Positions 17,351 to 40,946 of a DNA stretch of 64,000 bases are shown piece after piece. Under the pieces are notes generated by a model, which saw nothing but the letters and a program-made list of their open reading frames with translations, was not told the DNA's origin and searched no databases. Both the position numbers and the translations under genes were made by a program. Numbering within the stretch: position 1 is the first letter of the stretch; each line of letters begins with the position of its first letter. This DNA comes from Pseudomonadota bacterium (GTDB lineage: Bacteria > Campylobacterota > Campylobacteria > Campylobacterales > Sulfurimonadaceae). The stretch is from positions 1 through 64,000 of the forward strand of contig JAZDQA010000011.1 of assembly GCA_043797085.1 (NCBI GenBank). Reading direction: 5' to 3'.

Positions 17351-18012
17351 AAATTCTTTTGTTGGAAGATGAACAAATGCTCAGTGAAGCAATTAGCGAA
17401 TATCTGGTGACATTAGGGCATCGCGTTGTGACGTGCTATGACGGGAGCGAAGCGTTGGTGTGTATTCAAGGTGAGAATTTTGATTTGCTCATATTGGACA
17501 TTAATGTTCCGGGAATCGATGGGCTGGATTTACTCGAACAGCTTCATGTCCTTAAAATTCGTCCTCCCGCGATTTACATCAGTGCTTTAGCGGACATCGA
17601 GGGGATTAGTCGAGCGTATGATTTAGGATGTTATGATTATCTCAAAAAACCGTTTCATCTTAAAGAACTCTCTTTGCGCATTGATAAAGTGATGCAAAAT
17701 TGTCTTATTCCCCAAAGTCATACACGTCTTTCGAAGAGCTACGCGTATGACGCTTCCACGTCTACTTTACTGTGTGATAACGTAACACATCCTCTCTCAA
17801 AACGGCAATTGCAGATTATTGATCTATTAGCACGAAATCGTGGTCGTGTCGTTGATTTTGATCAGTTTCGTACCTATATATGGGATGATGAGTACGTGGA
17901 TAATGCAACGATACGTGCGGAAGTAAGTCGTCTAAAAAAATCTTTGAAAGAAGATTTTATTCAAAATATTCGCGCATTAGGGTACATGATCGACATTCCT
18001 CGCTCTGTATGA
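17347..18012 (+). CDS. OmpR-family response regulator
   Basis: LLEDE, LDINVP, KPF receiver motifs; winged-helix tail IRALGY. Confidence 0.93.
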   Translation: MKILLLEDEQMLSEAISEYLVTLGHRVVTCYDGSEALVCIQGENFDLLILDINVPGIDGLDLLEQLHVLKIRPPAIYISALADIEGISRAYDLGCYDYLKKPFHLKELSLRIDKVMQNCLIPQSHTRLSKSYAYDASTSTLLCDNVTHPLSKRQLQIIDLLARNRGRVVDFDQFRTYIWDDEYVDNATIRAEVSRLKKSLKEDFIQNIRALGYMIDIPRSV

Positions 18013-24098: not shown

Positions 24099-26057
24099 AT
24101 GAGCGATATCGTAAAACCAACTTTTCAACCTAACCGAGAGTTTGCAAAGCAAGCCCGCATTAAAAATATGTGTGAATACAACGACCTTCAAACATGGGCA
24201 CATGAGGATTACGAAGGATTTTGGGGTCATTTTGCGAATGAAAAAATTGACTGGTTTTCACCGTATACCCAAGTGCTCGATGAGAGCAATGCGCCGTTTT
24301 ACCAATGGTTCGTGAACGGAAAACTCAACGTTGCACACCAATGTATCGACCGTCATTTATCTTCACGCAAAAACAAAGCGGCGATCATTTTTGAAGGTGA
24401 CAGAGGCGATAAACAAATCATTACCTATCTTGAACTCTATTACAACGTCAATAAATTCGCGAACCTTCTGAAAAATGAATTCCACGTCAAAAAAGGGGAT
24501 CGCGTCGTCATCTATATGCCGATGATCCCTGAAGCGGCGTACGCGATGCTTGCATGTGCTCGTATCGGTGCGATCCACTCGATCGTTTTCGGCGGGTTCT
24601 CATCTGAAGCGTTGAAAGACCGTATCGAAGATGCCGAGGCAAAAGTGGTTATTACTGCTGATGGAGCATTCCGTAAAGACAAACCGTACATGCTCAAACC
24701 GGTCGTTGACCAAGCAATCGATGAAAAATCTCCGGTTGAGAAAGTTCTCGTAGTCGAGCGCAACAACGAAGACATCACATGGGTAGCGGGACGCGACTAT
24801 TCGTACAACGAACTCATCAAAAACCAATCAAGCATTTGTGAAGCCGAAGTTATGGATGCGGAAGACCCTCTTTTCCTACTCTACACCTCAGGCTCTACTG
24901 GAAAACCAAAAGGAGTTCAACACAACAGTGCTGGATATATCCTTTGGGCGCAAATGACGATGGAATGGGTATTTGATGTCAAAGAAAACGACACCTACTG
25001 GTGTACCGCAGACGTAGGCTGGATTACCGGACATACCTACATCGTCTATGGACCACTCGCGATGGGCGCGACGACGGTAATGTTCGAGGGTGTACCTACT
25101 TATCCCGATGCAGGGCGCCCATGGAAAATGGTCGAAGAGTACAAAATCAACCAATTCTACACCGCTCCGACTGCAATCCGCGTATTGCACAAAATGGGTG
25201 AAGATGAGCCGGCTAAATACGACTTGTCATCTCTCAAAGTCTTGGGTACAGTTGGTGAGCCTATCGATCCTCCGGCATGGAAATGGTACTACGAAGCAGT
25301 CGGTGGAAGCAAATGTGCAATCGTCGATACCTACTGGCAAACGGAAACGGGAGGACATATCGTCTCTCCATTGCCGGGTGCAACGCCGATCAAACCTGCA
25401 TGTGCGACCTTCCCGCTTCCGGGTATCATCGCTGAAATCCTTGATCCTCAAACGGGTATCAAAGTCGAAGCAGGCGAGCCAGGTTATATGTGTGTAACCC
25501 GTCCTTGGCCATCTATGATTCGTGGAATCTGGGGTGATCCTGAGCGTTTCGTGAAATCGTATTTCGGTGATGTGAAAAAAGAGGGTCAGCCGGTATACTT
25601 TACCGGTGACGGCGCAATCTACGACGAAGAGGGCTACATCACGATTACCGGACGTACCGATGACGTTATCAACGTTTCGGGTCACCGTATGGGAACCGCA
25701 GAAGTTGAAGCGGCATGTAAAAAACACCCCAACGTCGCGGAAGTAGCCGTTGTCGGTAAACCGCACGAGATAAAAGGCGAGGGAATCTTCGCCTACATCG
25801 TCCTCAAAAGCGAAGACACCGTCGGTGAAGAGATGGAAATGGTCAAAGAGATCAACAAAGTGATCATGAAAGAGATCGGTAACATTGCGATTTGTGATGA
25901 CATCGTTTTCGTTCCCGGCCTGCCAAAAACTCGCTCAGGTAAAATCATGCGCCGCATCCTTCGCTCTATCGCGAAAGGTGAAGCGATCACTCAGGATATC
26001 TCGACTCTCGAAGATCCAAGTATCGTTGCAACTATCGAAGCAAAAGTAAAAGGGTAA
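24099..26057 (+). CDS. acs: Acetyl-CoA synthetase
   Basis: [28 protein letters not shown]. Confidence 0.97.
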
Positions 26058-26064
26058 CTTCTAC

Positions 26065-26110
26065 CCGTTCACCCTGAGCCCAAGTGCCCTTTGGGTAAGT
26101 CGAAGGGTGA
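26065..26110 (+). repeat. REP-like palindrome, family A (CCGTTC..CTGAGC..GTCGAAGGG) with an internal insertion
   Basis: ccgttcaccctgagc[ccaagtgccctttgggtaa]gtcgaagggtga; related to 27900-27963 and 30436-30466. Confidence 0.7.
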
Positions 26111-26121
26111 GCTTTCGCTCC

Positions 26122-26149
26122 CGTCATTCCGTGATACGACACGGAATCC
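26122..26149 (+). repeat. CGTC-tagged palindrome, family B variant
   Basis: cgtc-attccgtg-atacga-cacggaat-cc; same architecture as the 37387 and 38391 copies. Confidence 0.7.
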
Positions 26150-26386
26150 ATCCCCTAAATATTTGCTTTTTTTATAATTTTTAGCTATTCTATTCTGACA
26201 GAATAAAACGGGATAATGAGAAAAATGATAACCGAAGTTAAGTTCATTACCTCTAGTCAACTTGTCACATTTTTTTTAATTTCAAACTGATAAAGCTACG
26301 GGACGAGGATGTTTTCAACCTCGATGGTGTCCTTCCGAAGATGCTTTTGAAGTTTGGGGTACAGACGTATTAAAAAGGGAAACTAA

Positions 26387-27292
26387 GTGGAAAAACAATT
26401 TCGATATTATTTAGGTCGAATAACAAAAGGTGGCGTATTAAAAACAAATGATCTTATTGATGCAATTATGCAGCCAATGATTATTTCAAAAAAAGAATAT
26501 AGTTATACATTTGCTAATATGCAATATGATCGAAGTCGAAATTTTATATTTGGCAAATTAGTTAAGTTTAAACCTGAGGGGAAAGTTGAGACCTTAGAAC
26601 CAGAGCAACACCTTGAGTCAACACTTAATACTCCTAATAAAAGAGAGTCATCTAGTGCATTTATAATTGTTCTAGATTATATGGGGATTGTATATCCGCA
26701 TATTTGGAATTCTTTGCTAAAAGATCAATTTGAACGATATTTTGCAGATTTAATTCATGAAAAACATGACAATTTTTTTGTCAGTTGCGATATTGATCCA
26801 ATTGTAGATTTGAGATCTTTTGTAGAACATATTTCGCATATGGATAAAGTTGACAAAATTAGTGCAACGGTTGTGCCACCAAACCCTTTGTTCGGTCCTG
26901 TATGGAAAGATTTGAAAGAGTATATGGAAGGACGAGGAAGTGGAGAACTAACCATAAATGAAAAATCAAAGTATATTAATGGTATCAAAACTAAAATTAT
27001 GGATATTGTTACATCTGTATTTGAAGCAGAAAAGATGAATGATTCTGAGCAAAAAAATAAGTTCTTTGAAAATAAAAAATTTGATATTTCAGATGCAGCA
27101 ATTTTAATGGCAGCTGATGGATATGGACGCGCCAGAATTGAAGGTTCAAGTGGAAAAGATAAAGTAGTTATTAGGACAAAAGATAATCAGAAAAGTTTTT
27201 TATTTGATAAAGATCCAAATATTAATGATTTATTTGAGTTGGCTTTAGAAGAGTTTGAAAAAATAAATGGAGAAAGATATCTTAACCATTAA
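26387..27292 (+). CDS. Hypothetical soluble protein (possibly DUF4747-like)
   Basis: 301 aa, GTG start after an AAAGGGA RBS, AT-rich; PPNP and AADGYGRARIEG motifs. Confidence 0.75.
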   Translation: MEKQFRYYLGRITKGGVLKTNDLIDAIMQPMIISKKEYSYTFANMQYDRSRNFIFGKLVKFKPEGKVETLEPEQHLESTLNTPNKRESSSAFIIVLDYMGIVYPHIWNSLLKDQFERYFADLIHEKHDNFFVSCDIDPIVDLRSFVEHISHMDKVDKISATVVPPNPLFGPVWKDLKEYMEGRGSGELTINEKSKYINGIKTKIMDIVTSVFEAEKMNDSEQKNKFFENKKFDISDAAILMAADGYGRARIEGSSGKDKVVIRTKDNQKSFLFDKDPNINDLFELALEEFEKINGERYLNH

Positions 27293-27293
27293 A

Positions 27294-27758
27294 ATGTACA
27301 AATTTAAAGATTTAATGCAATTTATTTTACCTGAAGTAGTAGTCGGAATTATAGTTGCAATTATATTACTCATGTTTCCTGATATTATAGGTTTCGCTTC
27401 AACATATCTATTCAATGATAATATGAAATGGGATGATTATTTAAAATTGCTTGGATTACCAAGTACAATACTTGTTTTGACATATAACTTTGGTGATAAA
27501 ATTTTGAATCCAGAAGATGCAATAAATAGAAAAAAATTGAAACAATGGACTGGATATTGGATGTTAAAAAATCGAGTCTATTACAGTATTATTGTCTCAT
27601 TTTTAGTTTTATGCGGAAGTATTATTTGTTGGTACTATACACTAAATGTAAATATAGAGAAAGGAACAATTGTCCTTTTGTGTTTATGGTCAATTTCTTT
27701 AACTTCATTTTCAACGGTAGCACTAGCAAAATTAGCTATAAAAGATATATTGTATTGA
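27294..27758 (+). CDS. Hypothetical membrane protein with about 4 TM segments
   Basis: ATG one base after the upstream stop (alternative start 27267); four hydrophobic segments; AT-rich. Confidence 0.75.
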   Translation: MYKFKDLMQFILPEVVVGIIVAIILLMFPDIIGFASTYLFNDNMKWDDYLKLLGLPSTILVLTYNFGDKILNPEDAINRKKLKQWTGYWMLKNRVYYSIIVSFLVLCGSIICWYYTLNVNIEKGTIVLLCLWSISLTSFSTVALAKLAIKDILY

Positions 27759-27899
27759 TTTTGGAAAGGTAATGATAGTCATTTATTATCCTAAAAATAG
27801 CAATAAATATGTTAACATTAAATGATAACCAAATGGAGCTTATGTGGGTGATTTAGAATAGACGGTGAGATATTCGCGATAGATAATGAGTGATTTTTT

Positions 27900-27963
27900 C
27901 CGTTCGTAGTGAGCTTGTCGAACTATGAACTTTCTTACCCTTCGACAAGCTCAGGGCGAACGG
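27900..27963. repeat. Inverted dimer (REPIN-like) of family A palindromes
   Basis: ccgttcgtagtgagcttgtcgaac...cccttcgacaagctcagggcgaacgg forms one long hairpin. Confidence 0.8.
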
Positions 27964-27989
27964 GACTAAACTTGATAAACTTATTTTGA

Positions 27990-28103
27990 AGCAGTGTTAT
28001 AATTACACATGGATTTATAAAAAAGACGCAAAAAACTCCGCGAAGAGAAATAGACCGCGCAAAAGCGCTTCGTTCAGCTCATACAGAAAAGGAGAGCAAA
28101 TGA
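27990..28103 (+). pseudogene. C-terminal remnant of a RelE/HigB (Gp49-like) toxin
   Basis: Unannotated frame reads VIITHGFIKKTQKTPRREIDRAKALR...*, with an in-frame TGA at 27987 and no start codon. Confidence 0.75.
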
Positions 28104-28216
28104 CGAATTACGAACAATTAAAAGCAAAAAAAATGGAAAGTGCAACATTTAAGCGTTTTTATGACCTTGCCATGGGGCGAAAAAACGGGGGCTTACTGTT
28201 TCAAATAGAAAAGTAG
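28100..28216 (+). pseudogene. Truncated HigA-like antitoxin N-terminus
   Basis: AAGGAG RBS and ATGA overlap with the toxin stop; MTNYEQLKAKKMESATFKRFYD; ends at 38 aa before any HTH. Confidence 0.55.
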
Positions 28217-28363
28217 GGCGTATGATGACCCCTAAAAATCCTCCTCTCTCCGATCAGCTAAAAGCTATCTAAATAGTTCTCCCTCGCTTTGGCGGGAATC
28301 AATTTCTTCATGTATTTACTAAGCCCCCTTATGCCATAATCCCACACTTACAAGGGAGTTTTC

Positions 28364-28891
28364 ATGGCGGCAGGTTCGACGATTTATAAAGTACAGCTTA
28401 GCATAGCCGATATGGATTGTAACTACTACGAGACGCATGAGATTACGATAGCCCAGCACCCCTCCGAAACCGATCAGCGTCTTATGATTCGTCTTGCTGC
28501 TTTTGCCCTTAATGCGTCTGATCGACTCGTGATTACCAAAGGGATCGGGGGAGAAGATGAGCCGCAAGTTTGGGAGAAAAACTACGGTGGTGACATCGAG
28601 CTTTGGATTGATCTTGGGCAAGTGGATGAGAAACGGCTTCGAAAAGCGTGTGGGCGTGCGGAGAGGGTGATTGTTTATACGTATAACCTCAAAAGTGCCA
28701 CTGCATGGTGGAGACAGTACGGAGCACTGTTCGCGCGGTTTAAAAATCTTTCGGTGATTCATCTGCATTCAGAGGGTCTTGAAAAATTATCTGATCGGTC
28801 GATGCGATTGCAATGCAATATTAGCGATAGAGAATTGAGTTTTCATAGCGATCTTGGAGATGTAACTATAACGCAAGAAATTTGGCAATAA
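28364..28891 (+). CDS. yaeQ: YaeQ family protein
   Basis: AQHPSET..RLMIRL, DEP, WIDLGQ.DEKRLRKA. Confidence 0.9.
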   Translation: MAAGSTIYKVQLSIADMDCNYYETHEITIAQHPSETDQRLMIRLAAFALNASDRLVITKGIGGEDEPQVWEKNYGGDIELWIDLGQVDEKRLRKACGRAERVIVYTYNLKSATAWWRQYGALFARFKNLSVIHLHSEGLEKLSDRSMRLQCNISDRELSFHSDLGDVTITQEIWQ

Positions 28892-28974
28892 AATTGTGCT
28901 TCAACTCTCCTTTATCTTTAAATATATTTCCATTGGTTATACTCACATATCAATTTTAAAATAATGGATTATTC

Positions 28975-29694
28975 ATGCGCGCAAAAATAGGAACATTTAA
29001 AAATAGTATTGCAACGTTGGAATTAACAGAACGAACTCTTTATCAAAATACTCTAATTTTAGGTGAAGAGGGTTCGGGTAAAACTCATTTGGCGAATAAG
29101 ATTCGCCATTTCGTTATGGCATGCGGTATTCCTACTCTCTATCTTGATTTTTCAGATCCTTCTATAGATCAAATCGAAGATAAATTTAAAATAGACGAAG
29201 CCTTTTTTTATCTCCGTTTTGATGAGAGTGAAGAGTTTGATACGGCACTCAACAAGGCAATTGCAGAGGGTAAAAATATTTATATGGCAGTAAATCCGAA
29301 CTATTTCGCGTCAAAACGCAATATAAAAAGTAAGCTTTCTCAAATGATTCAAAAGCCTGAACTCTTAGAAAAATATTATTATTTCTTTCATGAAATTGCA
29401 AATCTTGACGGTTTTTATACCAAATTTGAAGATTTCCTTTATTATATTTTCGATCTTGTGAATCTGAAAAAATTCGGATTTACCTTTTTAACGCAACCTC
29501 ATGAAACGTTTGAAGATCCGCGCATTAAACTGCTCTTTACTTTCTTGTATTTGGGACGATGTTCGAATGCCCATTATTACAATACGTCGGTATTGCGAAG
29601 CTTAGCCACGAATACATTTTATTACCAATATCGTATGGATAACCGATCGTTGTTATTCAATCAAATCAAAAGTGATATTGCAATCATTGATTAA
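28975..29694 (+). CDS. P-loop NTPase-like protein (HerA/VirB4-like, degenerate)
   Basis: Walker A GEEGSGKT; Walker-B-like position reads FFHE; KKFG..FLTQ motif. Confidence 0.65.
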   Translation: MRAKIGTFKNSIATLELTERTLYQNTLILGEEGSGKTHLANKIRHFVMACGIPTLYLDFSDPSIDQIEDKFKIDEAFFYLRFDESEEFDTALNKAIAEGKNIYMAVNPNYFASKRNIKSKLSQMIQKPELLEKYYYFFHEIANLDGFYTKFEDFLYYIFDLVNLKKFGFTFLTQPHETFEDPRIKLLFTFLYLGRCSNAHYYNTSVLRSLATNTFYYQYRMDNRSLLFNQIKSDIAIID

Positions 29695-29715
29695 TTATTA
29701 AAGGAGACAGAGAGT

Positions 29716-30426
29716 ATGGGAAGAGCGTTCGAATATCGTAAAGCAGCAAAAATGAAGCGATGGGGAAATATGTCCCGAGTGTTTCCAAAGCTGGGTAAAA
29801 TTATCACAATGGCAGCCAAAGAAGGTGGTGATGATCCTAGCATGAACCCGAAATTGCGCAGTGCCATCATGACAGCAAAAGCGCAAAATATGCCAAAAGA
29901 CAATATTGATGCGGCGATAAAAAGAGCTTCAGGCAAAGATGCTATTTCATTGGCTGAGATGAACATTGAGGGGAAAGCTCCTCATGGTGCACTTATTTTT
30001 GTCGAATGTGCTACCGATAACAATGCCCGTACGATTTCGAACATCCGAACGATTTTTGGCCGTGCAAAAGGGGAAACTCTCAACAATGGTGCACTGGAAT
30101 TTATGTTTAATCGCAAAGCGGTCTTTCGATTTCCAACACCGTCTATTGATCTTGAAGAGCTTGAGCTTACGCTGATTGATGCAGGGTTGGATTCACTAGA
30201 AGAAGAAGAAGAGGGTGAAGTAAGTGTGTATGGTGAGTATACAGCATTTGGTGCGCTCTCATCTGCTCTTGAAGAATTGGGAATTGAACCTGCAAGTGCT
30301 GCACTGGAACGTATCCCCAGTGTTCCGGTAGAATTTACCGATGAACAGATGGCGGATATCGAAAAGCTCATTGATAAACTCGAAGAAGATGAAGACGTTC
30401 AGGCTGTTTATACGAATATCGGGTAA
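29716..30426 (+). CDS. yebC: YebC/PmpR family protein
   Basis: [32 protein letters not shown]. Confidence 0.95.
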
Positions 30427-30435
30427 ATTCTAACG

Positions 30436-30466
30436 GTTCACCCTTCGAGGGCCTCAGGGCTTTCGG
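30436..30466 (-). repeat. Family A palindrome copy overlapping the 3' end of the SLT gene
   Basis: Reverse complement ccgaaagccctgaggccctcgaagggtgaac matches the family A pattern and contains the gene's TGA. Confidence 0.6.
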
Positions 30467-31109
30467 TTACTTCTTCTTTATTTTTACCATGATGAATCGT
30501 TGCATCCAACAGGAGTGTTTTAGCAAAATGATCTTTTGTTCCCCTTGGAAATGCAGGGTCCCTTAAGAGGACCGAAATTTTCTTGCTTCCATTTTTTTTG
30601 ATGAGACGTTTGAGTTTCATTTCTCCCATTCCATAAGCAAAATCAGCTAAATACCAACTGCCAAATTCTTTTTTCAAATCTTTGATATAGAAAATAGCCG
30701 CATCAGTTGAGCGGCAGACATCGGTTCTCTCATCATTCCCTTTTTTGATCGTAAGCCCGTACGTACGTCCTGATTGCGCCATAAACTGCCATAACCCTGC
30801 CGTTCCATTTCCGCGAACATCACTTCTAAAATTGGATTCACAATAGGGGATCAGTGAGAAAAAGAGAGGGATATTGGCTTCTTCAAATTTTTTGGCAATC
30901 GTAGCATGCTCTTCTTTGGTTACCGTATATCGTTTCATATGGCTTTTATAACTTGTAGCATATTTGTCACGGATTTCATTGAGGGCATTTATATCTTCGT
31001 AAGATTCCTCTGATCCTATAGAGCGCAATGAGTCATTGAGTGCTTTTGATGAGGGTTGAGCATGCGCTAATGCACAGACAGCGATAAGCGCTAACAGAAA
31101 CTTTATCAT
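30438..31109 (-). CDS. Lytic transglycosylase (MltD-type SLT domain, no LysM)
   Basis: Signal peptide, ES catalytic motif, AGLWQFM, DER.D. Confidence 0.85.
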   Translation of the reverse strand: MIKFLLALIAVCALAHAQPSSKALNDSLRSIGSEESYEDINALNEIRDKYATSYKSHMKRYTVTKEEHATIAKKFEEANIPLFFSLIPYCESNFRSDVRGNGTAGLWQFMAQSGRTYGLTIKKGNDERTDVCRSTDAAIFYIKDLKKEFGSWYLADFAYGMGEMKLKRLIKKNGSKKISVLLRDPAFPRGTKDHFAKTLLLDATIHHGKNKEEVTESPEALEG

Positions 31110-32338
31110 GCTTCGATGTAATCCAAATCTTTATGAAATGTCTCATGGGTATAATAAAGGGCCATGGCTCCTAAACTAAAGCATACTGCTCCGACGATTG
31201 CACCGGCTCCTAGTATCCCATAGCTATCCTTGAGAGCAATAAATGAGAGGGTGATGGGTACAACGGCACCACGGACGAAGTTTGGAGCGGTCGTTGCTAC
31301 GGTAGCTCGGATATTAGTCCCAAATTGTTCGGCCGCCATGGTGATAAAGAGTGCCCAGTAGCCACAAAAAATACCCAAAGCAAAACAACTCCAATAAAAG
31401 GCATCAGGACTAGCACCTGTGAGGGTATAGTACCATAGAACACTCACTGCAGAGAGGGTTAAGAAAAGGGTAAACGCTTTTTTACGGCTTTTGAGTTTTT
31501 GAGAGAGGTAGCCGCTGCTGAAATCACCGATGGCCAAACCGATGTAACAATACATCAGTGCAGTTCCTGCACTTACTTCTCCCGTAATTTGGAGAGCTTT
31601 TGCAAACTCAGGGGAAAACATCACCAAAACGCCGACGACAAACCATAGCGGAATGCCAATCGCAATGGTCTTAAGATATTTGCCTAAAAGAATTCGATTC
31701 TTAAAGAGAGAGAAGAAATCACCGCGTTTGATGTTTTCACTAAGGTTGTGTTCAAACATCCCAGATTCTCGTACTCGCAGACGTAAAATGAGGAGAGAAA
31801 ATCCCAGTAATCCACCGAAAATATACGCGTTGCGCCAATCAAAATGCTGTGCTACGAGATTGGCGGCAACAACACCCAATACTCCGAAACTTGCAATACT
31901 CATGACACCGTACCCGCGAAGATGTTTGGGAAGGATTTCAGCTACAAGAGTAACGCCTGCTCCCAATTCTCCAGCGAGACCGATACCCGCAATGAAACGT
32001 AATGCAGCATATTGTTCAACATTGGTGACAAAAGCATTCAGAAAATTGGCAACGGAGTAAAGAATAATAGAGGCAAAAAGAACGGAAAGACGACCTTTTT
32101 TATCTCCTAATATTCCCCATAAAATACCACCGAGGAGCATTCCGCCCATTTGCATATTTAGTATCGTCGAGCCCCATGAGGTAATTTCATCGGCATTTAG
32201 ACCAAGTTCGCTCAAACTTGCCACTCGGACAACACCGAATAAAATGAGGTCATAGATATCGACAAAATACCCCATCGCGATGACGATAACGGGAAGTGTC
32301 AATACTTGACGAAGGGTAGAAAGAGTTGAAGTTGGCAT
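31106..32338 (-). CDS. MFS transporter
   Basis: About 12 TM segments, GILGDKKGR motif A. Confidence 0.92.
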   Translation of the reverse strand: MPTSTLSTLRQVLTLPVIVIAMGYFVDIYDLILFGVVRVASLSELGLNADEITSWGSTILNMQMGGMLLGGILWGILGDKKGRLSVLFASIILYSVANFLNAFVTNVEQYAALRFIAGIGLAGELGAGVTLVAEILPKHLRGYGVMSIASFGVLGVVAANLVAQHFDWRNAYIFGGLLGFSLLILRLRVRESGMFEHNLSENIKRGDFFSLFKNRILLGKYLKTIAIGIPLWFVVGVLVMFSPEFAKALQITGEVSAGTALMYCYIGLAIGDFSSGYLSQKLKSRKKAFTLFLTLSAVSVLWYYTLTGASPDAFYWSCFALGIFCGYWALFITMAAEQFGTNIRATVATTAPNFVRGAVVPITLSFIALKDSYGILGAGAIVGAVCFSLGAMALYYTHETFHKDLDYIEA

Positions 32339-32448
32339 TAAGGCTCCCAGAGTATAGTGTTTTATTATAATCTATTTTGACTTAGATGAAGAAATAGGAG
32401 ATAGTTGTATTATAATATTAATAAATATAATAAGGATGGTATAGAACA

Positions 32449-32721
32449 ATGGTGCAAGAAATCCAAAAAGATATTATTCGATTTGCTCTTGACTTGGCGA
32501 TTGATAGCATTAATACGTATTCAGGGTATAAAGGTGATTTGGTCGTTAAAATTCGTACAAGAAATAAAAGCGATGTTTTGGAAATCCGAAAACATGCCCT
32601 TTTTTTAGAAATTAAAGAAGTGGTTATAAAAGAAAAGCTTGATACAGCGCAATATGAGATTTATTGTGTCACTAAAGATGATAGTATTTATCATTTGAGA
32701 GAAGATACTAATTTTTTCTAA
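32449..32721 (+). CDS. Hypothetical protein
   Basis: 90 aa ORF with AAGGA upstream, in the gap between minus-strand genes. Confidence 0.55.
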   Translation: MVQEIQKDIIRFALDLAIDSINTYSGYKGDLVVKIRTRNKSDVLEIRKHALFLEIKEVVIKEKLDTAQYEIYCVTKDDSIYHLREDTNFF

Positions 32722-33664
32722 TACTTGTTCCGGTTAAAAATACATAATCTTTACCTGTTAGGGTTACTCTAAATTTCTTTTGTTGCAAATATTTTTTACA
32801 ATAATAGACATCTTTGTAGAGCAACGTCATTTCAGAATACGGATAATTCGGCGCTTTGGCACCGTAAATCATCTCTCCACCCATCCAGCGACAGTTTGGA
32901 AATCCTAAAATCATCGCTCCGTCTCGTACTAAATATTCTTGGACGAGCTGCATGAACAGCAGTTTAAAATCAATACCGGGACTTTGGAGAGTACCGATGG
33001 AGATGATGAGGTCAAATTTTCCTAATCCCAGTGAAGCTAAATCATTAATATCATGGACAAAAAAGGTTGCATTTCCTTGCGAAAAACGTTCTCGTGCGTG
33101 AGAAATAGCCGTTTGAGAATGATCGATTCCAACAAGTTCGAGATTGAGATACTCATCATGGGGCAAAATTTGACGAATAAGATCAAATTCGTCTCCGGTA
33201 TTAATACCTAGATTCAAAATTCGCTTTCGCTCACCGACGTGAACACTTCTCAATGCTCGTAAATAAGGATTAAGAAATGCAGGTTCTTCATTTTTATGAA
33301 GTGTTGAAAATTTAGATTGCGTTCCGTATTTTTCTTCTTTTTCATCACTGTGATGAAATGAGTCGCTGAGATCGAGTTTTTCATACGTAATTTGTACAGT
33401 ATGATCCGATAAAAGTTTCGGGGTTAACATTCGGCAAAAAAGTATTTCGCCCAAATCGCTCCATGCCTTGTAGCTGCGGTAAAGATAGTCTGTTTCATCA
33501 ATCGTAATGGTCTCACCCGCGTAGTGTCCACGTTCGATGTCAGGATTGAGAACTTCGAATGTCAGGGTATCAAATTCTTTTAATACGTTTTGCCCCCACG
33601 TAAGAATTTCAACAAGGGGTTCAATGCTAAAAGATTTCAAAACAATTCCCACGGTTGATTCCAT
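32708..33664 (-). CDS. Class I SAM-dependent methyltransferase
   Basis: ILNLGINTG motif I, GIDHS, FDLII. Confidence 0.8.
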   Translation of the reverse strand: MESTVGIVLKSFSIEPLVEILTWGQNVLKEFDTLTFEVLNPDIERGHYAGETITIDETDYLYRSYKAWSDLGEILFCRMLTPKLLSDHTVQITYEKLDLSDSFHHSDEKEEKYGTQSKFSTLHKNEEPAFLNPYLRALRSVHVGERKRILNLGINTGDEFDLIRQILPHDEYLNLELVGIDHSQTAISHARERFSQGNATFFVHDINDLASLGLGKFDLIISIGTLQSPGIDFKLLFMQLVQEYLVRDGAMILGFPNCRWMGGEMIYGAKAPNYPYSEMTLLYKDVYYCKKYLQQKKFRVTLTGKDYVFLTGTSIRKN

Positions 33665-34323
33665 ACATCAAGTTGCGTTTTGCACTCGACACTCACAAAC
33701 CGCTCTCCCTCATCGGGTGCTGAAATAAAACTAAATACCTCATCGTTTAGACGAAAACGCAGGGCATACGCGTGCAAATAGCCTCTCTCTTCTTTGCGGG
33801 CAACATCGGCTTGCGCGTAGCGCTCATCTCCCGCAATAGGGGAACCCAGGCTTTTGAGGGCAACACGGATTTGATGGGTTTTTCCGGTGTGAGGCTTGAT
33901 GAGAAAAAATCGCTCGTGTGTACGCAGTGCGCAGCTGATAAACTGAGTGATAGCCGGATTGTTCATTGTCGGCAGAAGCTTATAATCACCGCGTCTGGCG
34001 CTTCCCATATCTGCCTTGACCCACCCCATTTTTTTCTTCGGTTTGCGCATACTAATAGCAAGATAGTATTTCTCTATCTCACGGCTTTCGAACATTTTTC
34101 CAAACTGTGCAGCGGTTTGCGAATCTTTGGCGAGGATGACGAGCCCTGAAGTCATTTTATCGAGACGGTGGACGGGAAAGAGGGGGATTCCAAGCTGTTG
34201 GGAGACTTGCACAACAAATCCCGCTTCCCCTTCGGAGTGGAAGTTGACTCCTGCACGTTTAACGGTAATGGCAAAATGGTCGTTTTGATACAAAACAGTT
34301 GAATTTTTAGGAAGCTCAATCAA
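33637..34323 (-). CDS. RluA-family pseudouridine synthase (TIGR01621-like)
   Basis: VHRLDKMTSG, TGKTHQIRV, LHAY; start uncertain (TTG at 34323 assumed). Confidence 0.88.
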   Translation of the reverse strand: MIELPKNSTVLYQNDHFAITVKRAGVNFHSEGEAGFVVQVSQQLGIPLFPVHRLDKMTSGLVILAKDSQTAAQFGKMFESREIEKYYLAISMRKPKKKMGWVKADMGSARRGDYKLLPTMNNPAITQFISCALRTHERFFLIKPHTGKTHQIRVALKSLGSPIAGDERYAQADVARKEERGYLHAYALRFRLNDEVFSFISAPDEGERFVSVECKTQLDVWNQPWELF

Positions 34324-34437
34324 GCAGTCTCTTTTATAATAGATACGTGATTGTAGCAAGAGTAAACCTTGTTCCCATTTATTGTATCTAATGATGTACA
34401 ATCTATCTAGTTCTCAAACCTAAATAAAGGAGACCTA

Positions 34438-36741
34438 ATGGCAAAAGATATTGTCTGCGGAATGGAGGTTTCCCCTTCGACACCGTACCAAAGTGATTAT
34501 AAAAATCAACATTACCTTTTTTGCTCCGAGCATTGTCAGCACAAATTTGAAGAGCACCCTGAAAACTTTCTCCACTCTGAAAGCGTATCGTGTCCCAATC
34601 ATAGCTGTTCCATCGATACCGCCAAGAGTGTTCTCTATACGTGTCCTATGCATCCTGAAGTGGAGCAAATAGGACCCGGAAGCTGTCCAAAATGCGGTAT
34701 GGCACTCGAACCCAAAACAGTGCAGCTCGACGATGATACGACAGAATACGATACGATGAAGCGCCGTTTTTGGATCAGTAGCGTGTTGTCTCTCTTTGTT
34801 TTAATCAGTGCGATGGGTTCGGAGTTTTTTCCCGAACAATTTGATACGATGATCGATCCCAAATCGCGTCAGTGGTTTGAAATGCTCCTCTCCGCTCCGG
34901 TCGTATGGTGGGGCGGATCGATCTTTTATATAAGGGCTTACGAATCAATTCGTAACCGCAGCCTGAATATGTTTACACTTATCGCACTGGGTACTTCGAC
35001 CTCATGGATATACAGTGCCGTTGCCGTCCTTTTTCCTGCTATTTTCCCCGAAAATCTATCTATGCATATGGGGATTATCCCGGTTTATTTCGAAGCAGCA
35101 GCAGTCATCACCACCCTTGTCTTATTGGGGCAGGTATTGGAACTTCGCGCCCGCAGCCGAACGAACGATGCAATCCGGCTGTTGCTTGGACTCTCAGCGA
35201 AGAGTGCACGTATTATCCGCCCGGACGGAAGCGAAGAGGAAATATCCCTCAAACTCGTTCAGCCGGGGGATCGGCTCCGTATCCGTCCGGGTGAGAAGAT
35301 TCCGGTAGATGGTATCGTCGTTGATGGGGAGAGTCATGTGGATGAGTCGATGGTGACCGGAGAACCGATTCCGCTCTCCAAAAAAAACGGAGAGCATCTG
35401 ATCGGTGCGACCATCAATACGACGGGAAGCCTTGTCATGGAGGCGCAGAAAGTGGGAGCCGATACGCTCCTCTCCCAGATCGTCTCAATGGTTTCTCAGG
35501 CACAGCGTTCCCGCGCGCCGATTCAGAAGAGTGCGGATCGGGTATCGGGCTATTTTGTCCCTGTGGTTATTTTTATCGCCGTGGTGACGTTTATCGTTTG
35601 GTATTTTTTCGGACCCGAACCCTCATTGGGGTATGCTCTCGTTAATGCCGTCGCGGTATTGATTATCGCTTGTCCGTGCGCACTGGGATTGGCCACACCC
35701 ATATCGATTATGGTCGGCACCGGCAAAGGGGCAATAGAGGGTGTTTTGATCAAAAATGCCGAAGCTTTGGAGATGATGGAAAAGATCGATACCCTCGTCG
35801 TCGATAAGACGGGGACGTTAACGGAGGGAAAACCGAAACTGGTCTCCGTTATCGCACAAGAGGGATGGGATGAAAACAAAATTGTTTCTTTAGCGGCCTC
35901 ATTGGAGCGTTCCAGCGAACACCCGCTCGCCTCAGCGGTAGTGAATGCCGCGCAGGAGAGAGGAGTGCCACTGAGTGAAACGGATCAGTTCCGATCGGTA
36001 ACGGGCAAAGGGGTTGTCGGAAAAGTTGAGGGGTTGGAAATCGCCTTGGGAAATATCAAATTGATGGAAGAACTGGGAATCGAAACGGCAGGACTCTCGG
36101 CTGTGGCGGACGATTTGCGCCGCGAAGGTGAAAGTGTGATGTTTCTTGCCATCGATCATACGCTAGCAGGGCTACTCGGTGTTGCCGACCCGATCAAAGA
36201 GACCACCGCGCAAGCAATCCGTGATTTGCACGAGGAGGGGATAACGGTTGTGATGCTCAGCGGAGACAGCCGTATCACCGCCGAAGCGGTCGCCGCCCGA
36301 TTGGGGATTGATCACTTTGAAGCCGAAGTTCTGCCGCAGCAAAAAGCCGAAACGATAAAACGGCTCCAGAGTGAGGGGCATATCGTCGCGATGGCAGGAG
36401 ATGGGATTAACGATGCCCCCGCATTGGCTCAGGCTCAGGTGGGGATCGCTATGGGGAGCGGAACCGATGTCGCGATGGAGAGTGCGGGAATCACCCTCGT
36501 CAAAGGAGACCTTCGCGGTATCGTCCGCGCACGCCGTCTCAGCCGCGCCACGATGCGCAATATTCGCCAAAACCTCTTTTTCGCCTTTATTTACAACAGT
36601 GCGGGGATACCGATTGCGGCGGGAGTCCTTTATCCATTTTTCGGAGTACTGCTCTCACCGATGATTGCGGCGGCTGCTATGAGCTTCAGTTCGGTGTCGG
36701 TGATTACGAATGCATTGAGATTACGAGGGGAAAAGCTTTAA
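34438..36741 (+). CDS. copA: Copper-translocating P1B-type ATPase with YHS and YTCPMHP domains
   Basis: YHS-like N-terminus, YTCPMHP, TGE, CPC, DKTGT, HP, GDGIND, YN and MxxSS Cu(I) ligands. Confidence 0.93.
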
Positions 36742-36780
36742 AGCTCTTCACATATATAGTAAAAAGATAGTTACTGAAAC

Positions 36781-36822
36781 TTGACATGCTAGAATATAAT
36801 GTATATAATCATTACATACATT
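36781..36822 (+). promoter_or_regulatory. Consensus sigma70 promoter with overlapping inverted repeat, upstream of the BrnTA module
   Basis: TTGACA(36781)-17 nt-TATAAT(36804); AATGTAT-N11-ATACATT (36798-36822). Confidence 0.7.
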
Positions 36823-36838
36823 TAGTAAAAGGTGAGTG

Positions 36839-37144
36839 ATGTTTGATTGTCTCGATGTCGAACGATTGTGCGGGTTTGATTGGAATGATGGCAATATCCA
36901 AAAAAACAAACTCAAACACGATCTCGATTTTTGGCTGATCGAAGAGATATTTTTCAACGAACCGTTACTCATCTACGAAGATAATGCCCACTCAGAACAA
37001 GAGTGCCGATGCTACGCATTGGGAAAAACCGATGATGGGCAATTGCTCTTTGTCGCTTTTACCGTGCGGGGGCAAAGAATTAGAGTGATTTCGGCACGTC
37101 CGATGAGCAAAAAGGAGAGAAGCTACTATGAAAAAAATACCTGA
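36839..37144 (+). CDS. brnT: BrnT family ribonuclease toxin
   Basis: FDW..GN..KN..KH, E.R..ALG, IRVISAR.MSKKER..YE. Confidence 0.9.
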   Translation: MFDCLDVERLCGFDWNDGNIQKNKLKHDLDFWLIEEIFFNEPLLIYEDNAHSEQECRCYALGKTDDGQLLFVAFTVRGQRIRVISARPMSKKERSYYEKNT

Positions 37145-37385
37145 ACTGAAAACCGAAGATGAGATTGCGACATTTTGGGACGAACATGATTCGACGGAGT
37201 ATATTGACTGGGACAAAGCCAAACCGATGCGTTTGGCAAATCTACAAAAGAGTGCGAAAACGATTTCAATCCGTATGCCTGTTGATATGATCGAAACCCT
37301 CAAAATTCAAGCAAATAAAAACGACATTCCCTATCAGTCGTATCTAAAGATGTTGATTGCGGATGGTTTGAGGGCACATGGGTAA
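37128..37385 (+). CDS. BrnA/CopG-like RHH antitoxin
   Basis: FWDEHDS, ISIRMP, PYQSY; overlaps the toxin gene. Confidence 0.88.
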   Translation: MKKIPELKTEDEIATFWDEHDSTEYIDWDKAKPMRLANLQKSAKTISIRMPVDMIETLKIQANKNDIPYQSYLKMLIADGLRAHG

Positions 37386-37386
37386 A

Positions 37387-37413
37387 TGTCATTCCCGCGT
37401 AGGCGGGAATTCA
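37387..37413 (+). repeat. CGTC-type palindrome, family B (left copy)
   Basis: tgtcattcccgcgtaggcgggaattca. Confidence 0.8.
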
Positions 37414-37430
37414 GTAAAGCTATGTTGAAT

Positions 37431-38324
37431 TTAACTTATGTCATTGAGAATTTTATTGATAGTTTTTAAAACCTCAATTAAGCCTTTGTAGTCAAATTCA
37501 TTAGGTATTTTGCCATCTATATAATATTTTGAATCAAAACATCTGAATTCCTTTGATATAAATAGAAATATTTGTTTGTCTACAACAGCCAATGACATAT
37601 CACTATCTAATTCATTTAAAACTTTTAGAAGTTTTTCTTCTGCAAGTGAATTCAAAGATTTTGTTATTACAGTATGATTATCGCTATAGGTAGAAATGGG
37701 TGAAAAATCTTTTTTTAGCGATTGACGTAACTGTTCTAAAGATGGGAAAATATTTTTTTCATAAATATATATTTCATCAATCCATGATGTGTGAGTTTCA
37801 ATACTAATAAATAATCCTTTATTCATTTTATTAATAAAAATAGGATTTTCAAGATTGAAAAAATCAATATAGATTGAAGCTACTGTGGTTTTTTTATTTG
37901 AAATCTGTATATTAAATGCCCAATATTGCTGTATTGTACTTGATACAATAAATAAATCATATAAAAGAAAAAATCCAGATTTTTTTGCATTTTTGTTTAA
38001 ATCGGAATAGCCAATAAATGCACCTTTTTCATCGATACATTTTAATGTATTTGCAAAAATAGTAGTTGTTAATTCATCTTGGTATTCATATCTAAATGCA
38101 TAAGTTCCTATATAAAAAATCATTGCAGCTATGAATAAAGACATAATGAAAAAGATAATATGCAGACCAAAATGCTGTGTTAAAAGAAAAATACCAATGA
38201 CTACAGCTAATAGTGAAACTGTTAAAATGATAAGCTTATTTTCGACAGCATCTATTTTAGTCTTTAAAGTTAAAATATCAGATTGAACTTTTTGCATATA
38301 CAAATGTTTAAACTTATCATACAT
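37431..38324 (-). CDS. Orphan AT-rich membrane protein (2 N-terminal TM; weakly DUF3137-like)
   Basis: 297 aa ORF, two hydrophobic helices, visibly more AT-rich than its neighbours. Confidence 0.65.
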   Translation of the reverse strand: MYDKFKHLYMQKVQSDILTLKTKIDAVENKLIILTVSLLAVVIGIFLLTQHFGLHIIFFIMSLFIAAMIFYIGTYAFRYEYQDELTTTIFANTLKCIDEKGAFIGYSDLNKNAKKSGFFLLYDLFIVSSTIQQYWAFNIQISNKKTTVASIYIDFFNLENPIFINKMNKGLFISIETHTSWIDEIYIYEKNIFPSLEQLRQSLKKDFSPISTYSDNHTVITKSLNSLAEEKLLKVLNELDSDMSLAVVDKQIFLFISKEFRCFDSKYYIDGKIPNEFDYKGLIEVLKTINKILNDIS

Positions 38325-38390
38325 GGATTTACTTTTAATGTTTTTTTTATGATACGGTATTTTAACTTATAAAGTGAAATAAAATTAAGC

Positions 38391-38417
38391 TGGATTCCCG
38401 CTTACGCGGGAATGACG
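38391..38417 (-). repeat. CGTC-type palindrome, family B (right copy, inverted)
   Basis: Reverse complement cgtcattcccgcgtaagcgggaatcca. Confidence 0.8.
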
Positions 38418-38419
38418 GA

Positions 38420-39136
38420 TTAGTTCGGTATCTCTTCTTGGGATAGTATCCGATACTCCCCATCTTTTAAATTCCCAAGAGTTAAATTTCCAATACGGGA
38501 GCGGTGCAATGCCGTGACATGATTCCCCACCGCCGCGAACATTCGCCGTACCTGATGGTATCGTCCTTCGGTGATTTCTAATGTCACATGTGTTTCATCG
38601 ATTATGGTGAGTTTGGCAGGAAGACACGGAGATTTTTCACCATTTAGCATCAATGTACCTGTTGCGAAAATATTCGTTTCATTACCGTTTAATGGTCGAT
38701 CCAGTGTTACTTCGTAGAGTTTAGGGACATGATATTTAGGGGACGTAAGGCGATGAAGGAGTTGCCCGTCATCCGTAAGCAGAAGTAATCCGCTCGTCTC
38801 TTTGTCGAGTCGTCCGATGGTGGAAATCTTAGGATCACGTTTCTGCCATCTTGAGGGAAGCAGGGAATAAACGAGTTTTCCTTCGCCATCATCATGGGAA
38901 CAGACAAAATCAAGCGGTTTATTCATCATAATAACCATCCCCTCACGCGTGTCGAGTGGTTCACCCTGAAATGCTACATCGTGATGAAATGCTTTGAAAT
39001 CGGTTTTTTTTATGATCTCTCCATCAACGGTAACAAGACCTGCGGCAATGAGTTTTTTGGATTCATTGCGACTTGCATATCCCAGACTGGTGAGAAGTTG
39101 ATCGAGTCGTTGTTTAGAGGGTTTGGAGTTTTTCAT
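38420..39136 (-). CDS. rsuA: RsuA-family pseudouridine synthase
   Basis: S4 domain, GRLDKETSGLLL, EGRYHQVRRMF. Confidence 0.88.
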   Translation of the reverse strand: MKNSKPSKQRLDQLLTSLGYASRNESKKLIAAGLVTVDGEIIKKTDFKAFHHDVAFQGEPLDTREGMVIMMNKPLDFVCSHDDGEGKLVYSLLPSRWQKRDPKISTIGRLDKETSGLLLLTDDGQLLHRLTSPKYHVPKLYEVTLDRPLNGNETNIFATGTLMLNGEKSPCLPAKLTIIDETHVTLEITEGRYHQVRRMFAAVGNHVTALHRSRIGNLTLGNLKDGEYRILSQEEIPN

Positions 39137-40946
39137 CGGTCTCTTTAGTGATTCTATCGAATTCATTACTGGCTGTTTCTAATCTCTCAAACAAGTTTTC
39201 AATTTCTTTCTCATCCACAGAAATACTTTTTGAAAGTTCTTGGAGCTTACCGCTATCACCTTGATTGGAATATTCGATCAGTTTTTCGTGCGATATTTTG
39301 AGCTTATCTTCGAGTTTCATAATTGTATTTTCGCAAGTGTCAATCTCTTTTTTGAGAGGATTAAGGAGTCGTGAACGCTCTTGGATTAGTTCAGCGCGCT
39401 GCTGCTTTTGCTCTTTTTTATTGCTGTTTTGGGTTGCTTTGGCAGGTTTTGGTGCCTCAGATATTTCTTCATCCCATCCGATTTTTTCTAAAAATTGATC
39501 GTAGTTGCCATCAAAAAACTCAGCTCCGCCTTCACGGAAGATAATCAGCTGATCGGCAAGTTCACGCAACAGCATCTCAGAGTGGGTGACGATGACAACA
39601 GAGCCGTCAAAGCGTTTAAGCGCATCGCATAGGGAGTCAATGGACTGCATATCGAGGTGATTGGTCGGTTCATCTAAAAAGAGGAGATTGGCGGGGGTGG
39701 CGATGATTTTACCCAGCATTACGCGAGAGCGTTCACCTCCTGAGAGGATAGAGATTTTTTTATCGGCATCGTCACCGCTAAACATCATCGTTCCGCAAAT
39801 GGATCGGACACGGACATTTTGGAGGGTATTGTCAGCACTTTGAATTTCGTCCGCAATGGTATTATTTTTATCTAACCGATCGATGTTGGTTTGACCGAAG
39901 TGGGCGATAGCGGTCGAGGGATGAGAAATGATTTCTCCGGTAGGTTTTAAAACACCTGCCATTGTATTGAGAAGCGTTGATTTTCCTTTCCCATTTTTCC
40001 CGATAATAGCGAGGCATTTGTTCTTTTCCAAACTAAACGAGAGATTTTGAAAAAGCAGTTCATCCGCAGTGTAGCCAAATGAGAGGTTTTTGATTTCCAT
40101 AATAACTTTGGCGGGAGTAGGGCGATAGGAAAAAGAGAAGGATAAATCTTTTTCACCCTCCAAGGATTCCATAATCCCCATTTTTTCCAGCTCTTTGGCT
40201 TTGGATTGTGCCATGACAGCAGTGGATGCACGGGCTTTGTTGCGAGCGACAAAGTCGATGAGCTCTTCCCGTTTTTTATCATGATTGATTTTGGTCTTGA
40301 CGTACAATTCGTCTTCCCCTGCCATCATTTCATAATATTTGGCACTGCCGCCTTTGATGATCGATACATTACGGCGACGTAATCCCATGGTATGCGTAGA
40401 AACGGAATCCATAAAATCACGATCATGGGTGATAAGAATCACTTCTCCCTCAAATGCACGGATAAACGAGGCAAGCCAGCGAAGTGAGACGATGTCGAGG
40501 TAGTTGGTCGGTTCATCGAGAAGGAGTAAATTGGGTTCGGTAACGAGAAGTTTGACGAGGTTCATCCGTATCTGATAGCCACCTGAAAAGCTCAAGGGAT
40601 CTTTATCCAAATCTTCTTGGGTAAATCCCAAACCGAAAAGAATTTTTTCAACCTTATAGACATCATGTTGGGCATCTCCCACCAAGACAGAGGCACACTC
40701 TTCGCGAACGGTTTTATGGGTGAAATGGAGATGTTGTCGCAATGTTCCGATACGGTAATTTCGCGGGATGAGTATTTCGCCCTTATCGTAAGGCTCTTCA
40801 CTCAAAATGATTTTAAATAGAGTTGATTTACCGGAACCGTTGCGTCCGACAAACCCGATTTTTTGACCTGCGGAGAGTTTGAGATTGAGATTCTCAAACA
40901 GTACGCGTGTTCCGTAGCTTTTTGTAAGATTATTTATTTGAATCAT
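39114..40946 (-). CDS. ABC-F family ATP-binding protein
   Basis: Two NBDs (GRNGSGKST, GKNGKGKST, LDEPTN twice), no TM, C-terminal coiled coil. Confidence 0.93.
   Translation of the reverse strand: MIQINNLTKSYGTRVLFENLNLKLSAGQKIGFVGRNGSGKSTLFKIILSEEPYDKGEILIPRNYRIGTLRQHLHFTHKTVREECASVLVGDAQHDVYKVEKILFGLGFTQEDLDKDPLSFSGGYQIRMNLVKLLVTEPNLLLLDEPTNYLDIVSLRWLASFIRAFEGEVILITHDRDFMDSVSTHTMGLRRRNVSIIKGGSAKYYEMMAGEDELYVKTKINHDKKREELIDFVARNKARASTAVMAQSKAKELEKMGIMESLEGEKDLSFSFSYRPTPAKVIMEIKNLSFGYTADELLFQNLSFSLEKNKCLAIIGKNGKGKSTLLNTMAGVLKPTGEIISHPSTAIAHFGQTNIDRLDKNNTIADEIQSADNTLQNVRVRSICGTMMFSGDDADKKISILSGGERSRVMLGKIIATPANLLFLDEPTNHLDMQSIDSLCDALKRFDGSVVIVTHSEMLLRELADQLIIFREGGAEFFDGNYDQFLEKIGWDEEISEAPKPAKATQNSNKKEQKQQRAELIQERSRLLNPLKKEIDTCENTIMKLEDKLKISHEKLIEYSNQGDSGKLQELSKSISVDEKEIENLFERLETASNEFDRITKETDEKLQTL

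Follow-up and report, generated by a model that had tools for sequence, protein, structure and literature searches.

In the first 64,000 nucleotides (nt) of contig C11 of G000, the genome analysed here (C11:1-64000, hereafter the window), short hairpin repeats of two families, A and B, stand at the edges of two hypervariable gene slots, one between acs and yaeQ and the other between brnA and rsuA. Family B is, on the basis of its sequence, the published NTS/dRS3 hairpin (CGTC-1 type) of the Ssn GIY-YIG nucleases, while family A accompanies another branch of GIY-YIG proteins. We regard as evenly balanced the proposal that the hairpins of these two systems serve as optional crossover or joining points when genes are swapped via the conserved flanks. 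Overall, what we describe is a known hairpin-nuclease system, a known type of slot and a real bracket pattern shown by a minority of inserts; a dedicated gene-capture system, the possibility raised by a sequence-only reading of the window, is not established.

The assembly of G000 has 2.40 Mb in 14 contigs and is 95.9% complete. Other G numbers designate relatives, L numbers fetched loci and X numbers strain runs with contigs. The names acs, hemJ, polA, higA, rpsL and rpoC are putative assignments made from the translated sequences, unless a Pfam family is given.

Two hypervariable slots

The acs-yaeQ slot opens after an acs-like acetyl-CoA synthetase gene (24099..26057, + strand), which is 90-98% identical in relatives and has differing DNA after it, and closes before yaeQ (28364..28891, +; PF07152). 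Seven nt after the acs stop codon comes a family A repeat (26065..26107, +), whose loop is interrupted by a 17-nt mini-hairpin (26081..26097, +), and then an NTS-like family B hairpin of subtype B2 (26122..26149, +), which is one base off SRM. Both repeats are present at acs in the closest relative, G012 (about 87% DNA identity to G000), which splits from G000 10 nt behind B2 and continues into other cargo; the A edge is also seen on the X8 contigs. The G012 copy at the site matching 26065 is uninterrupted, which indicates that the mini-hairpin arrived after the A repeat. Mini-hairpins of this kind, 17-19 nt long, are inserted in A and B repeats, either in the loop or in the stem, and G000 has nine such copies, the others being at C1:90712, C1:120979, C3:30806, C5:186211, C6:41263, C7:64713, C8:108784 and C13:289741.

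Several alleles of this slot were recovered from strain runs, using joined contigs only and ignoring the missing cover of the cargo in several runs. An X3 contig carries the cargo of the window at 99.7% identity. In X7, B2 is joined to position 28314 (33 letters on the short side); in two X8 contigs B2 is followed by 683 or about 960 other letters; an X1 contig has B2 and the same leader, the start of a gene of about 299 amino acids, and then other DNA (the leader is also found in X14, which diverges after it); and in X1, acs is joined to 28316 through 48 letters. The left edge of the variation lies at 26154-26159, just behind the 3′ tail of B2, and different cargo joins 5-10 nt behind the retained left repeats, while the right edge lies at 28314-28319, where there is no repeat. 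Among the relatives (18 of the 19 were used, L004 being excluded for a mis-anchored open reading frame, ORF), ten have foreign genes after acs, three a tRNA gene alone and five no gene. The tRNA gene present in the slot of L009, L010, L017 and L022 was read by eye as tRNA-Gln.

The A(+) copy at 26065 and the A(-) copy ending at 27963 had been read as the two ends of a cassette. Given the edges above, the variable unit does not run from A to A: 27963 pairs with 27900 in a local inward dimer of 64 nt (27900..27924, +, with 27939..27963, -; fold -20.7 kcal/mol) that is internal to the variable DNA, 26065 is shared with G012, which carries other cargo, and the variable DNA runs about 350 nt past the dimer. 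A dimer of the same form recurs without cargo at C12:118918 and C13:70684 of G000. The variable DNA outside the proposed bracket (27964..28273, +) contains short ORF remnants, and its 27994-28273 portion is found on an X1 contig whose upstream part is not on the window. What had been taken for a degenerate B copy near 28276 is the ancestral post-acs hairpin (28279..28300, +), which aligns with G035, G034, G023 and G002 and has been displaced by the insertion.

The insert starts with the remnant (start and end) of the gene of about 299 amino acids (26160..26386, +); this gene is complete in G015, and in G008 it stands before other cargo. It is followed by cargo A1, a DUF4747 protein (26387..27292, +; PF15931) that is predicted to be RexA-like, and by cargo A2 (27267..27758, +), which has three membrane helices predicted from hydropathy and is likely a RexB-like partner. 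The structural model of A1 is of low confidence (pLDDT 58), and its best fold match is lambda RexA (8twq, E = 1.6e-5, TM-score 0.27); an A2 homologue stands directly behind the A1 homologue in 10 of 15 other loci. We consider that cargo A is likely a RexAB-like pair, within the limits of that model. PADLOC and NCBIfam gave the cargo no name, and a sequence search of solved structures gave no match. These genes are AT-rich, as the sequence-only reading had it (GC content 0.29, compared with a gene mean of 0.41), and rare, A1 being found in none of the 250 other genomes of the family, but they are not orphans. The cargo A1 gene has 767 homologues. Elsewhere in the window, a gene of about 90 amino acids that belongs to no Pfam family and lies beside a methyltransferase gene (32449-32721) is duplicated in several relatives (L015, L033, L035 and L036).

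The second slot lies between a BrnT toxin/CopG-family antitoxin pair (36836..37385, +; PF04365, PF12441) and an rsuA-like pseudouridine synthase gene (38420..39166, -; PF00849, PF01479). It contains cargo B (37431..38324, -), a protein of 297 amino acids with two predicted membrane helices and a GC content of 0.25, for which three homologues were found (46-56% identity). Here the predicted bracket holds: an inward-facing pair of B1 hairpins bounds the insert, one 1 nt after the antitoxin stop codon (37387..37412, +; one mismatch to SRM and three to NTS) and the other 2 nt after that of rsuA (38391..38417, -; exact SRM, one mismatch to NTS), so that both face cargo B. In G077, G074 and contigs of two studies (X1, X3) the slot is empty, the genes abut and there is no repeat. 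A B3 copy follows brnA in G075, where it precedes unrelated cargo, and another stands behind rsuA in G009, at exactly the place of the window copy and before an Abi_alpha gene. Both intervals thus vary, with different cargo in relatives and strains, as had been anticipated; empty repeat dimers were sought at both sites and none was found.

When the window is compared with the empty allele, the left joint is 3 nt 5′ of the tag of the hairpin. The right joint is at the tag if the rsuA tail of G074 is used as reference, and 27 nt farther out, inside rsuA, if the closest strains are used, because the last eight codons of rsuA vary with the allele; this allele-linked tail suggests that exchange took place through the flanking gene. 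There is no target duplication. A resemblance of the inner flank of 37387 to the start region of ssnA units was discarded as too short to count.

These joints bear on the idea, unlikely in our view, that a cargo bracketed by repeats is a non-autonomous counterpart of the repeat>ssnA<repeat unit and is moved by the nuclease in trans. Cassette B fits it best, since it shares the B1>...<B1 layout of the ssnA unit, since ssnA units occur at several loci, and since its right joint is at the tag with the G074 reference and its left joint is at the place of the SsnA cut, as read from the oligonucleotide descriptions in the part of the Ssn study available to us (PMC11893778). On the other side, the right joint relative to the closest strains is outside the repeat, in relatives the brackets mostly end in unlike repeats (B1/B3, B2/B2′, B/A), the idea fails for cargo A, and the same part of that study reports restriction of incoming DNA, with neither gene capture nor transposition by Ssn. 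Nor did the cargo proteins compared include any whose gene occurs with its repeat ends at a second locus.

If the hairpins are joining points, the following course of events may be proposed. The two nuclease systems likely deposited hairpins at the 3′ ends of genes; repeat-nuclease-repeat units are associated with many loci of the genus, and would decay by internal deletion to short dimers and single hairpins. Between close strains and species the content of the two slots differs, and some have no gene there. The hairpin at the slot edge stays with the core gene and the cargo changes behind its 3′ tail, as would happen if incoming DNA with a similar hairpin crossed over inside the resident one, the other side being anchored by RecA-type homology or by a second hairpin. 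The DNA may enter by natural transformation (the DNA-uptake genes ComEC and DprA are present in G000), and in nuclease-bearing strains a cut of the Ssn type immediately 5′ of the hairpin could leave it exposed as a terminal homology arm. The hairpins are dispensable in this process, most slots working without them.

Repeats and inserts in the genus

The association was examined genus-wide by comparing three relatives with G000, G012 over 821 kb and G075 and G007 over about 400-570 kb each, in regions picked on repeat positions and not on content. All P values are indicative only, since the genomes are kin, the gene calls are our own and 87%-identical intergenic DNA blurs the joints. Out of 115 inserts between syntenic core genes in the three relatives, 91 have no repeat, 16 have one at one end and 8 at both ends. 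Two-sided brackets make up 8 of the 24 repeat-bearing inserts, where 4-7% would be expected (P = 2e-4); 29 of 32 end repeats face inward; and among single repeats the ratio of those that point at the non-core gene to those that do not is 31 to 5 (control bias 36/55, P = 0.03). Between G012 and G000, repeats are found at 11 of 172 ends of unique segments and 25 of 749 conserved junctions (P = 0.08), and in 4 of 14 AT-rich clean indels compared with none of 15 host-like ones (P = 0.04), counts that were set aside as evidence. Indels consisting of a dimer only show that inverted dimers are gained and lost.

A shared repeat with different cargo behind it was found at acs (G012, X7, two X8 contigs), at polA-higA, in a hemJ slot beside a family A nuclease gene, and at the rsuA end. 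The hemJ-like locus of L046, L047, L050, L053 and L057 has a variable slot for AT-rich genes between family A dimers, beside the nuclease gene; its cargo codes for 215 amino acids, 253 amino acids or a family of 118-127 amino acids, and none was seen in the flanks of L049, L051 and L056. The corresponding locus of G000 has neither the gene nor A/B repeats. In G007, an array of 4.9 kb between rpsL- and rpoC-like genes (L265:7219-12120; G007 C1, about 273.2-278.1 kb) stands in place of about 45 nt in G000 and contains nine lineage-specific ORFs together with six repeats; the left repeats point right, the right repeats point left, and the three right-hand ones share a similar inner flank of about 35 nt. 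The cargo of the slots includes toxin-antitoxin genes, Abi genes and genes of small membrane proteins.

It is a real possibility, short of a probable one, that the hairpins are bystanders, which accumulate at tolerant gene ends independently of foreign genes, exchange proceeding via the flanking genes only. Single inward repeats would then be what remained of dimers after later replacements had cut them, and brackets would be due to local clustering or to repeat-rich donors. This is consistent with the 79% of inserts that have no repeat, and with one cargo gene of the hemJ slot that has two B repeats in G069 and G075 and no left one in G007. It does not account well for the excess of two-sided brackets, for the stretch of 6 nt behind the acs repeat in which several alleles diverge, or for the inward repeats that bound the G007 array 19 and about 17 nt from core sequence.

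A number of other observations weigh against the hairpins being joining points, and several of them are what bystanders would give. In addition to the repeat-free inserts, 46 of the 55 AT-rich islands of G000 have no repeat, and an inward polarity would also be expected if random breakpoints cut resident dimers. The link of the repeats to AT-rich genes holds in one genome of four: A/B repeats are beside 19 of 50 low-GC genes of G075 compared with 8 of 90 others, which is significant, but enrichment fails in G000 outside the window (5/37 vs 63/889, P = 0.18) and in G012 (5/39 vs 13/195, P = 0.19), and the trend is reversed in G007 (0/41 vs 10/77, P = 0.014). An apparent enrichment in G000 for all families together (9/46 vs 113/2034 outside the window) is driven by a third family, A and B alone being not significant. 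Enrichment beside genes absent from G000 is not significant in any of the three relatives. At acs, a family B repeat is present at the stop codon in 2 of the 10 relatives with cargo and absent from 8; at brnA-rsuA, G012 has a different AT-rich gene, of 155 amino acids, with no repeat, and the empty alleles offer no resident repeat as a landing site. Homologues of the cargo elsewhere are not linked to repeats either: credible ones were found in none of 15 loci with homologues of cargo A (38-62% identical, flanks often short), and the one homologue of cargo B from the genome search that has flanks (G241, 44%) is free of repeats there. Cargo B is present in 1 of the 250 other genomes of the family. 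No donor was found in which a repeat at a different locus precedes the same cargo. According to the portion of the paper at hand, NTS-bearing DNA integrates less in the presence of the published SsnA, which cuts on the 5′ side of the hairpin, while the joints observed here are 3′ (PMC11893778). Last, neither ssnA nor the family A nuclease was found in the 95.9% complete assembly of G000.

As to the repeats being cassette ends or landing pads, what remains is a fixed edge on the acs side and brackets above chance, without any A-to-A unit. The outcomes that the sequence-only reading had set down as refuting it, repeats placed at random relative to AT-rich genes and the same cargo in relatives without them, were both seen in part. 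A more general role as handles for gene capture appears doubtful: a nuclease, that of family A included, would trim incoming single-stranded DNA at the hairpin, and hairpin-led genes would recombine into resident hairpins, giving integron-like arrays (such as that of G007) without integrase or attC.

Repeat families and their nucleases

A seed-based census of G000 gave 82 repeat copies distributed over 55 sites, most of which are short inward dimers near gene ends; family B accounts for 55 copies, family A for 12 and the third family for 15. Of these, 35 copies were counted on three contigs and none in one shuffle of the same contigs. The A and B copies listed in the sequence-only reading are all where it placed them, and in the 64-kb window all A/B matches are indeed confined to positions 26065-38417. 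This cluster is not special in the genome: contig C6 also has four sites within 12.4 kb, and random placement gives P = 0.12. Among the 25 longest inverted repeats found in a separate search, the B1 pair alone represents the families. The remaining copy of the window, an eroded family A repeat (about 30433..30468, -), is at a yebC/slt junction without cargo; A repeats without cargo are present at this junction in G007, G075 and G068 as well.

The match of family B to NTS/SRM extends to its polarity. A gene that we assign to the SsnA type from its repeat, its size and its separate branch in the tree is present in 13 of 65 other genomes of the genus, in 16 copies at no fewer than six loci, and every copy is beside B repeats, with the layout B1>gene<B1 in 8 of the 16. 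It codes for a single-domain GIY-YIG protein of about 95 amino acids, which we take to resemble SsnA itself in sequence. G012 has an internally deleted unit of 152 nt, made of both ends and only the two tips of the ssnA-type gene, which shows a route by which repeat dimers can arise. The SsnA protein (cd10448) cuts single-stranded DNA, as described in the accessible part of Chenal et al. 2025 (PMC11893778).

Repeat-flanked GIY-YIG genes, which had been suggested as a thing to look for, were found in relatives and not in G000. Among 20 small GIY-YIG loci from relatives, A repeats flank 9, B repeats flank 4 and the other 7 have no repeat; the three kinds form three groups in a tree of 45 proteins (midpoint root only). 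The family A nucleases have their own branch (support 98/92), nearer to the repeat-free group than to the SsnA type, to which they are 27-39% identical. The GIY-YIG genes of G000 are a repeat-free gene of 97 amino acids on C3, which groups with the repeat-free branch, and one for a UvrC-like protein of about 600 amino acids. A scan of a genome collection gave at least 555 relatives of the A-type protein; in the 80 loci kept for flank analysis, which come from several phyla, an A repeat is within about 300 nt of the nuclease gene in 76 and on both sides in 60. Covariation of the 3-bp stem of family A is seen in 255 of 291 copies, compared with a mean of 92 and a maximum of 115 after shuffling.

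No match of SRM to family A was seen with up to one mismatch for the three window copies tested, and SRM adjoins 1 of the 80 family A nuclease genes. Judged from these sequences, family A is Ssn-like in layout and not a member of the SsnA/SRM system. Family A, five of its 15-mers included, was found in no paper by a search that left subscription journals mostly outside and did not cover supplements, and the term GIY is absent from the accessible part of the bioRxiv Minerva preprint. Family A and its nuclease are apparently an unpublished sister family of the known hairpin-nuclease system.

The frames of family A nucleases often read through into the repeats (several of the 80 loci, L117-L161), which gives tails with VRPELVEG and PSTSSGRT peptides. 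Several of the L117-L161 nuclease genes precede what we take to be a type I restriction specificity gene. B repeats are also found inside long open frames (G000 C7:2252 and L206:2965-3448; G000 C1:123836; L211:3154), one case being the same gene in two genomes. Three related small proteins of exported type (32-38% identical) each stand beside a repeat at a different locus (G000 C8:22922-23503; G012 C7:6074-6700; L217:3466-4179).

The third family, CTC-tagged, adjoins AT-rich genes at 6 of 11 sites (P = 1e-4); places in G000 include C10:5160-6699, C11:155751-159850, C11:199562 and C14:85855. Other, unrelated types of intergenic repeats succeed one another at these same gene ends in G000 (C1:47209, C4:46908, C12:188826 and C13, about 17700-17780, after the hemJ-like gene) and in L003 and L021. 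This suggests that such sites attract several repeat families.

Comparison with known systems

The present case recalls the Ssn/NTS system, so far as the latter is described in the material available, by the sequence, polarity and fold of family B, by the repeat>nuclease<repeat layout in relatives, by repeats beside variable genes and by the DNA-uptake genes of the host; it differs in that no ssnA was found in G000 and that family A is not SRM and goes with another GIY-YIG branch. The likeness to CGTC-tagged repeats that had been noticed is confirmed; features shared with family CGTC-1 (Di Nocera et al. 2013, PMC3733652) are the GTC tag, the 8-bp stem, the 4-nt loop, the CCA tail, the inward (HH) dimers, the place at gene 3′ ends and the occasional in-frame copies inside genes. 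On the other hand, the sections of that survey available to us give no transposase association, and the tag and stem of family A are not met in them (PMC3733652).

In the dRS3/NIME loci of Neisseria, too, conserved genes at syntenic sites enclose small sets of genes that vary, and crossover at dRS3 with RecA homology, or insertion of array-flanked genes, was proposed there as the exchange route (Bentley et al. 2007, PMC1797815, as far as the accessible text goes). Unlike those loci, the slots described here have one or two hairpins and no long arrays, mix two nuclease-linked families, often contain defence or toxin-antitoxin genes, and belong to a free-living genus of Campylobacterota. The idea that dRS3/NTS-type repeats favour gene exchange dates from 2007 and is still a hypothesis; the only experiment found, in the part of its report at hand, shows SsnA restricting uptake.

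In REPIN-RAYT systems, too, inverted dimers come and go between relatives and a repeat flanks a nuclease gene, but the partner is a Y1 HUH tyrosine transposase, whereas here it is a GIY-YIG protein. PF01797 has no match in G000 (the search covered this genome only), TIGR02249 gives no integron integrase over the cut-off and no IS110 domain is present in G000; Rfam, which does not bear on attC sites, has no match in 25000-40000. It is most unlikely that an outside integrase or transposase (integron integrase, RAYT or IS110/Piv-type recombinase) uses the repeats as att sites. The cargo types do resemble integron cassettes, but the lack of these enzymes in a genome that is nearly complete argues against this, as does the fact that no phage genes or repeated att core were seen at the slots. 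What would favour it is that dRS3 is the integration target of a filamentous phage of Neisseria with an IS110/Piv-type recombinase, according to the available text of PMC1797815. A transposon, or a miniature inverted-repeat transposable element, with passenger genes would have matched inverted ends, which are present for cassette B only, and no unit was seen at two loci among the cargo proteins compared.

Cargo A resembles the RexAB Abi pairs (lambda RexA/RexB and Butters gp30/gp31, in the part of PMC7542560 that was accessible) in that a DUF4747 protein is encoded with a small membrane protein and that the best match of its model is RexA; it differs by three predicted helices in A2 instead of four, by its place in a chromosomal slot instead of a prophage, and by the lack of a PADLOC match.

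The genus provides natural test material in an environmental bacterium: alleles without any cargo, inserts bracketed by repeats, and a slot whose many alleles diverge behind a single hairpin. Should the hairpins be joining points, an element of 25 nt and a nuclease of 95 amino acids would account for the entry of defence and toxin-antitoxin genes into chromosomes that are free of integrons; if they are bystanders, this is an ordinary REP family beside ordinary variable loci. Family A with its nuclease is a second candidate for a sequence-specific single-strand nuclease. As for the slots themselves, the minimal mobile elements of Neisseria, reportedly described by Saunders and Snyder in 2002, have a feature that is found at both: the same pair of conserved genes encloses one or another small set of genes, or no gene at all.

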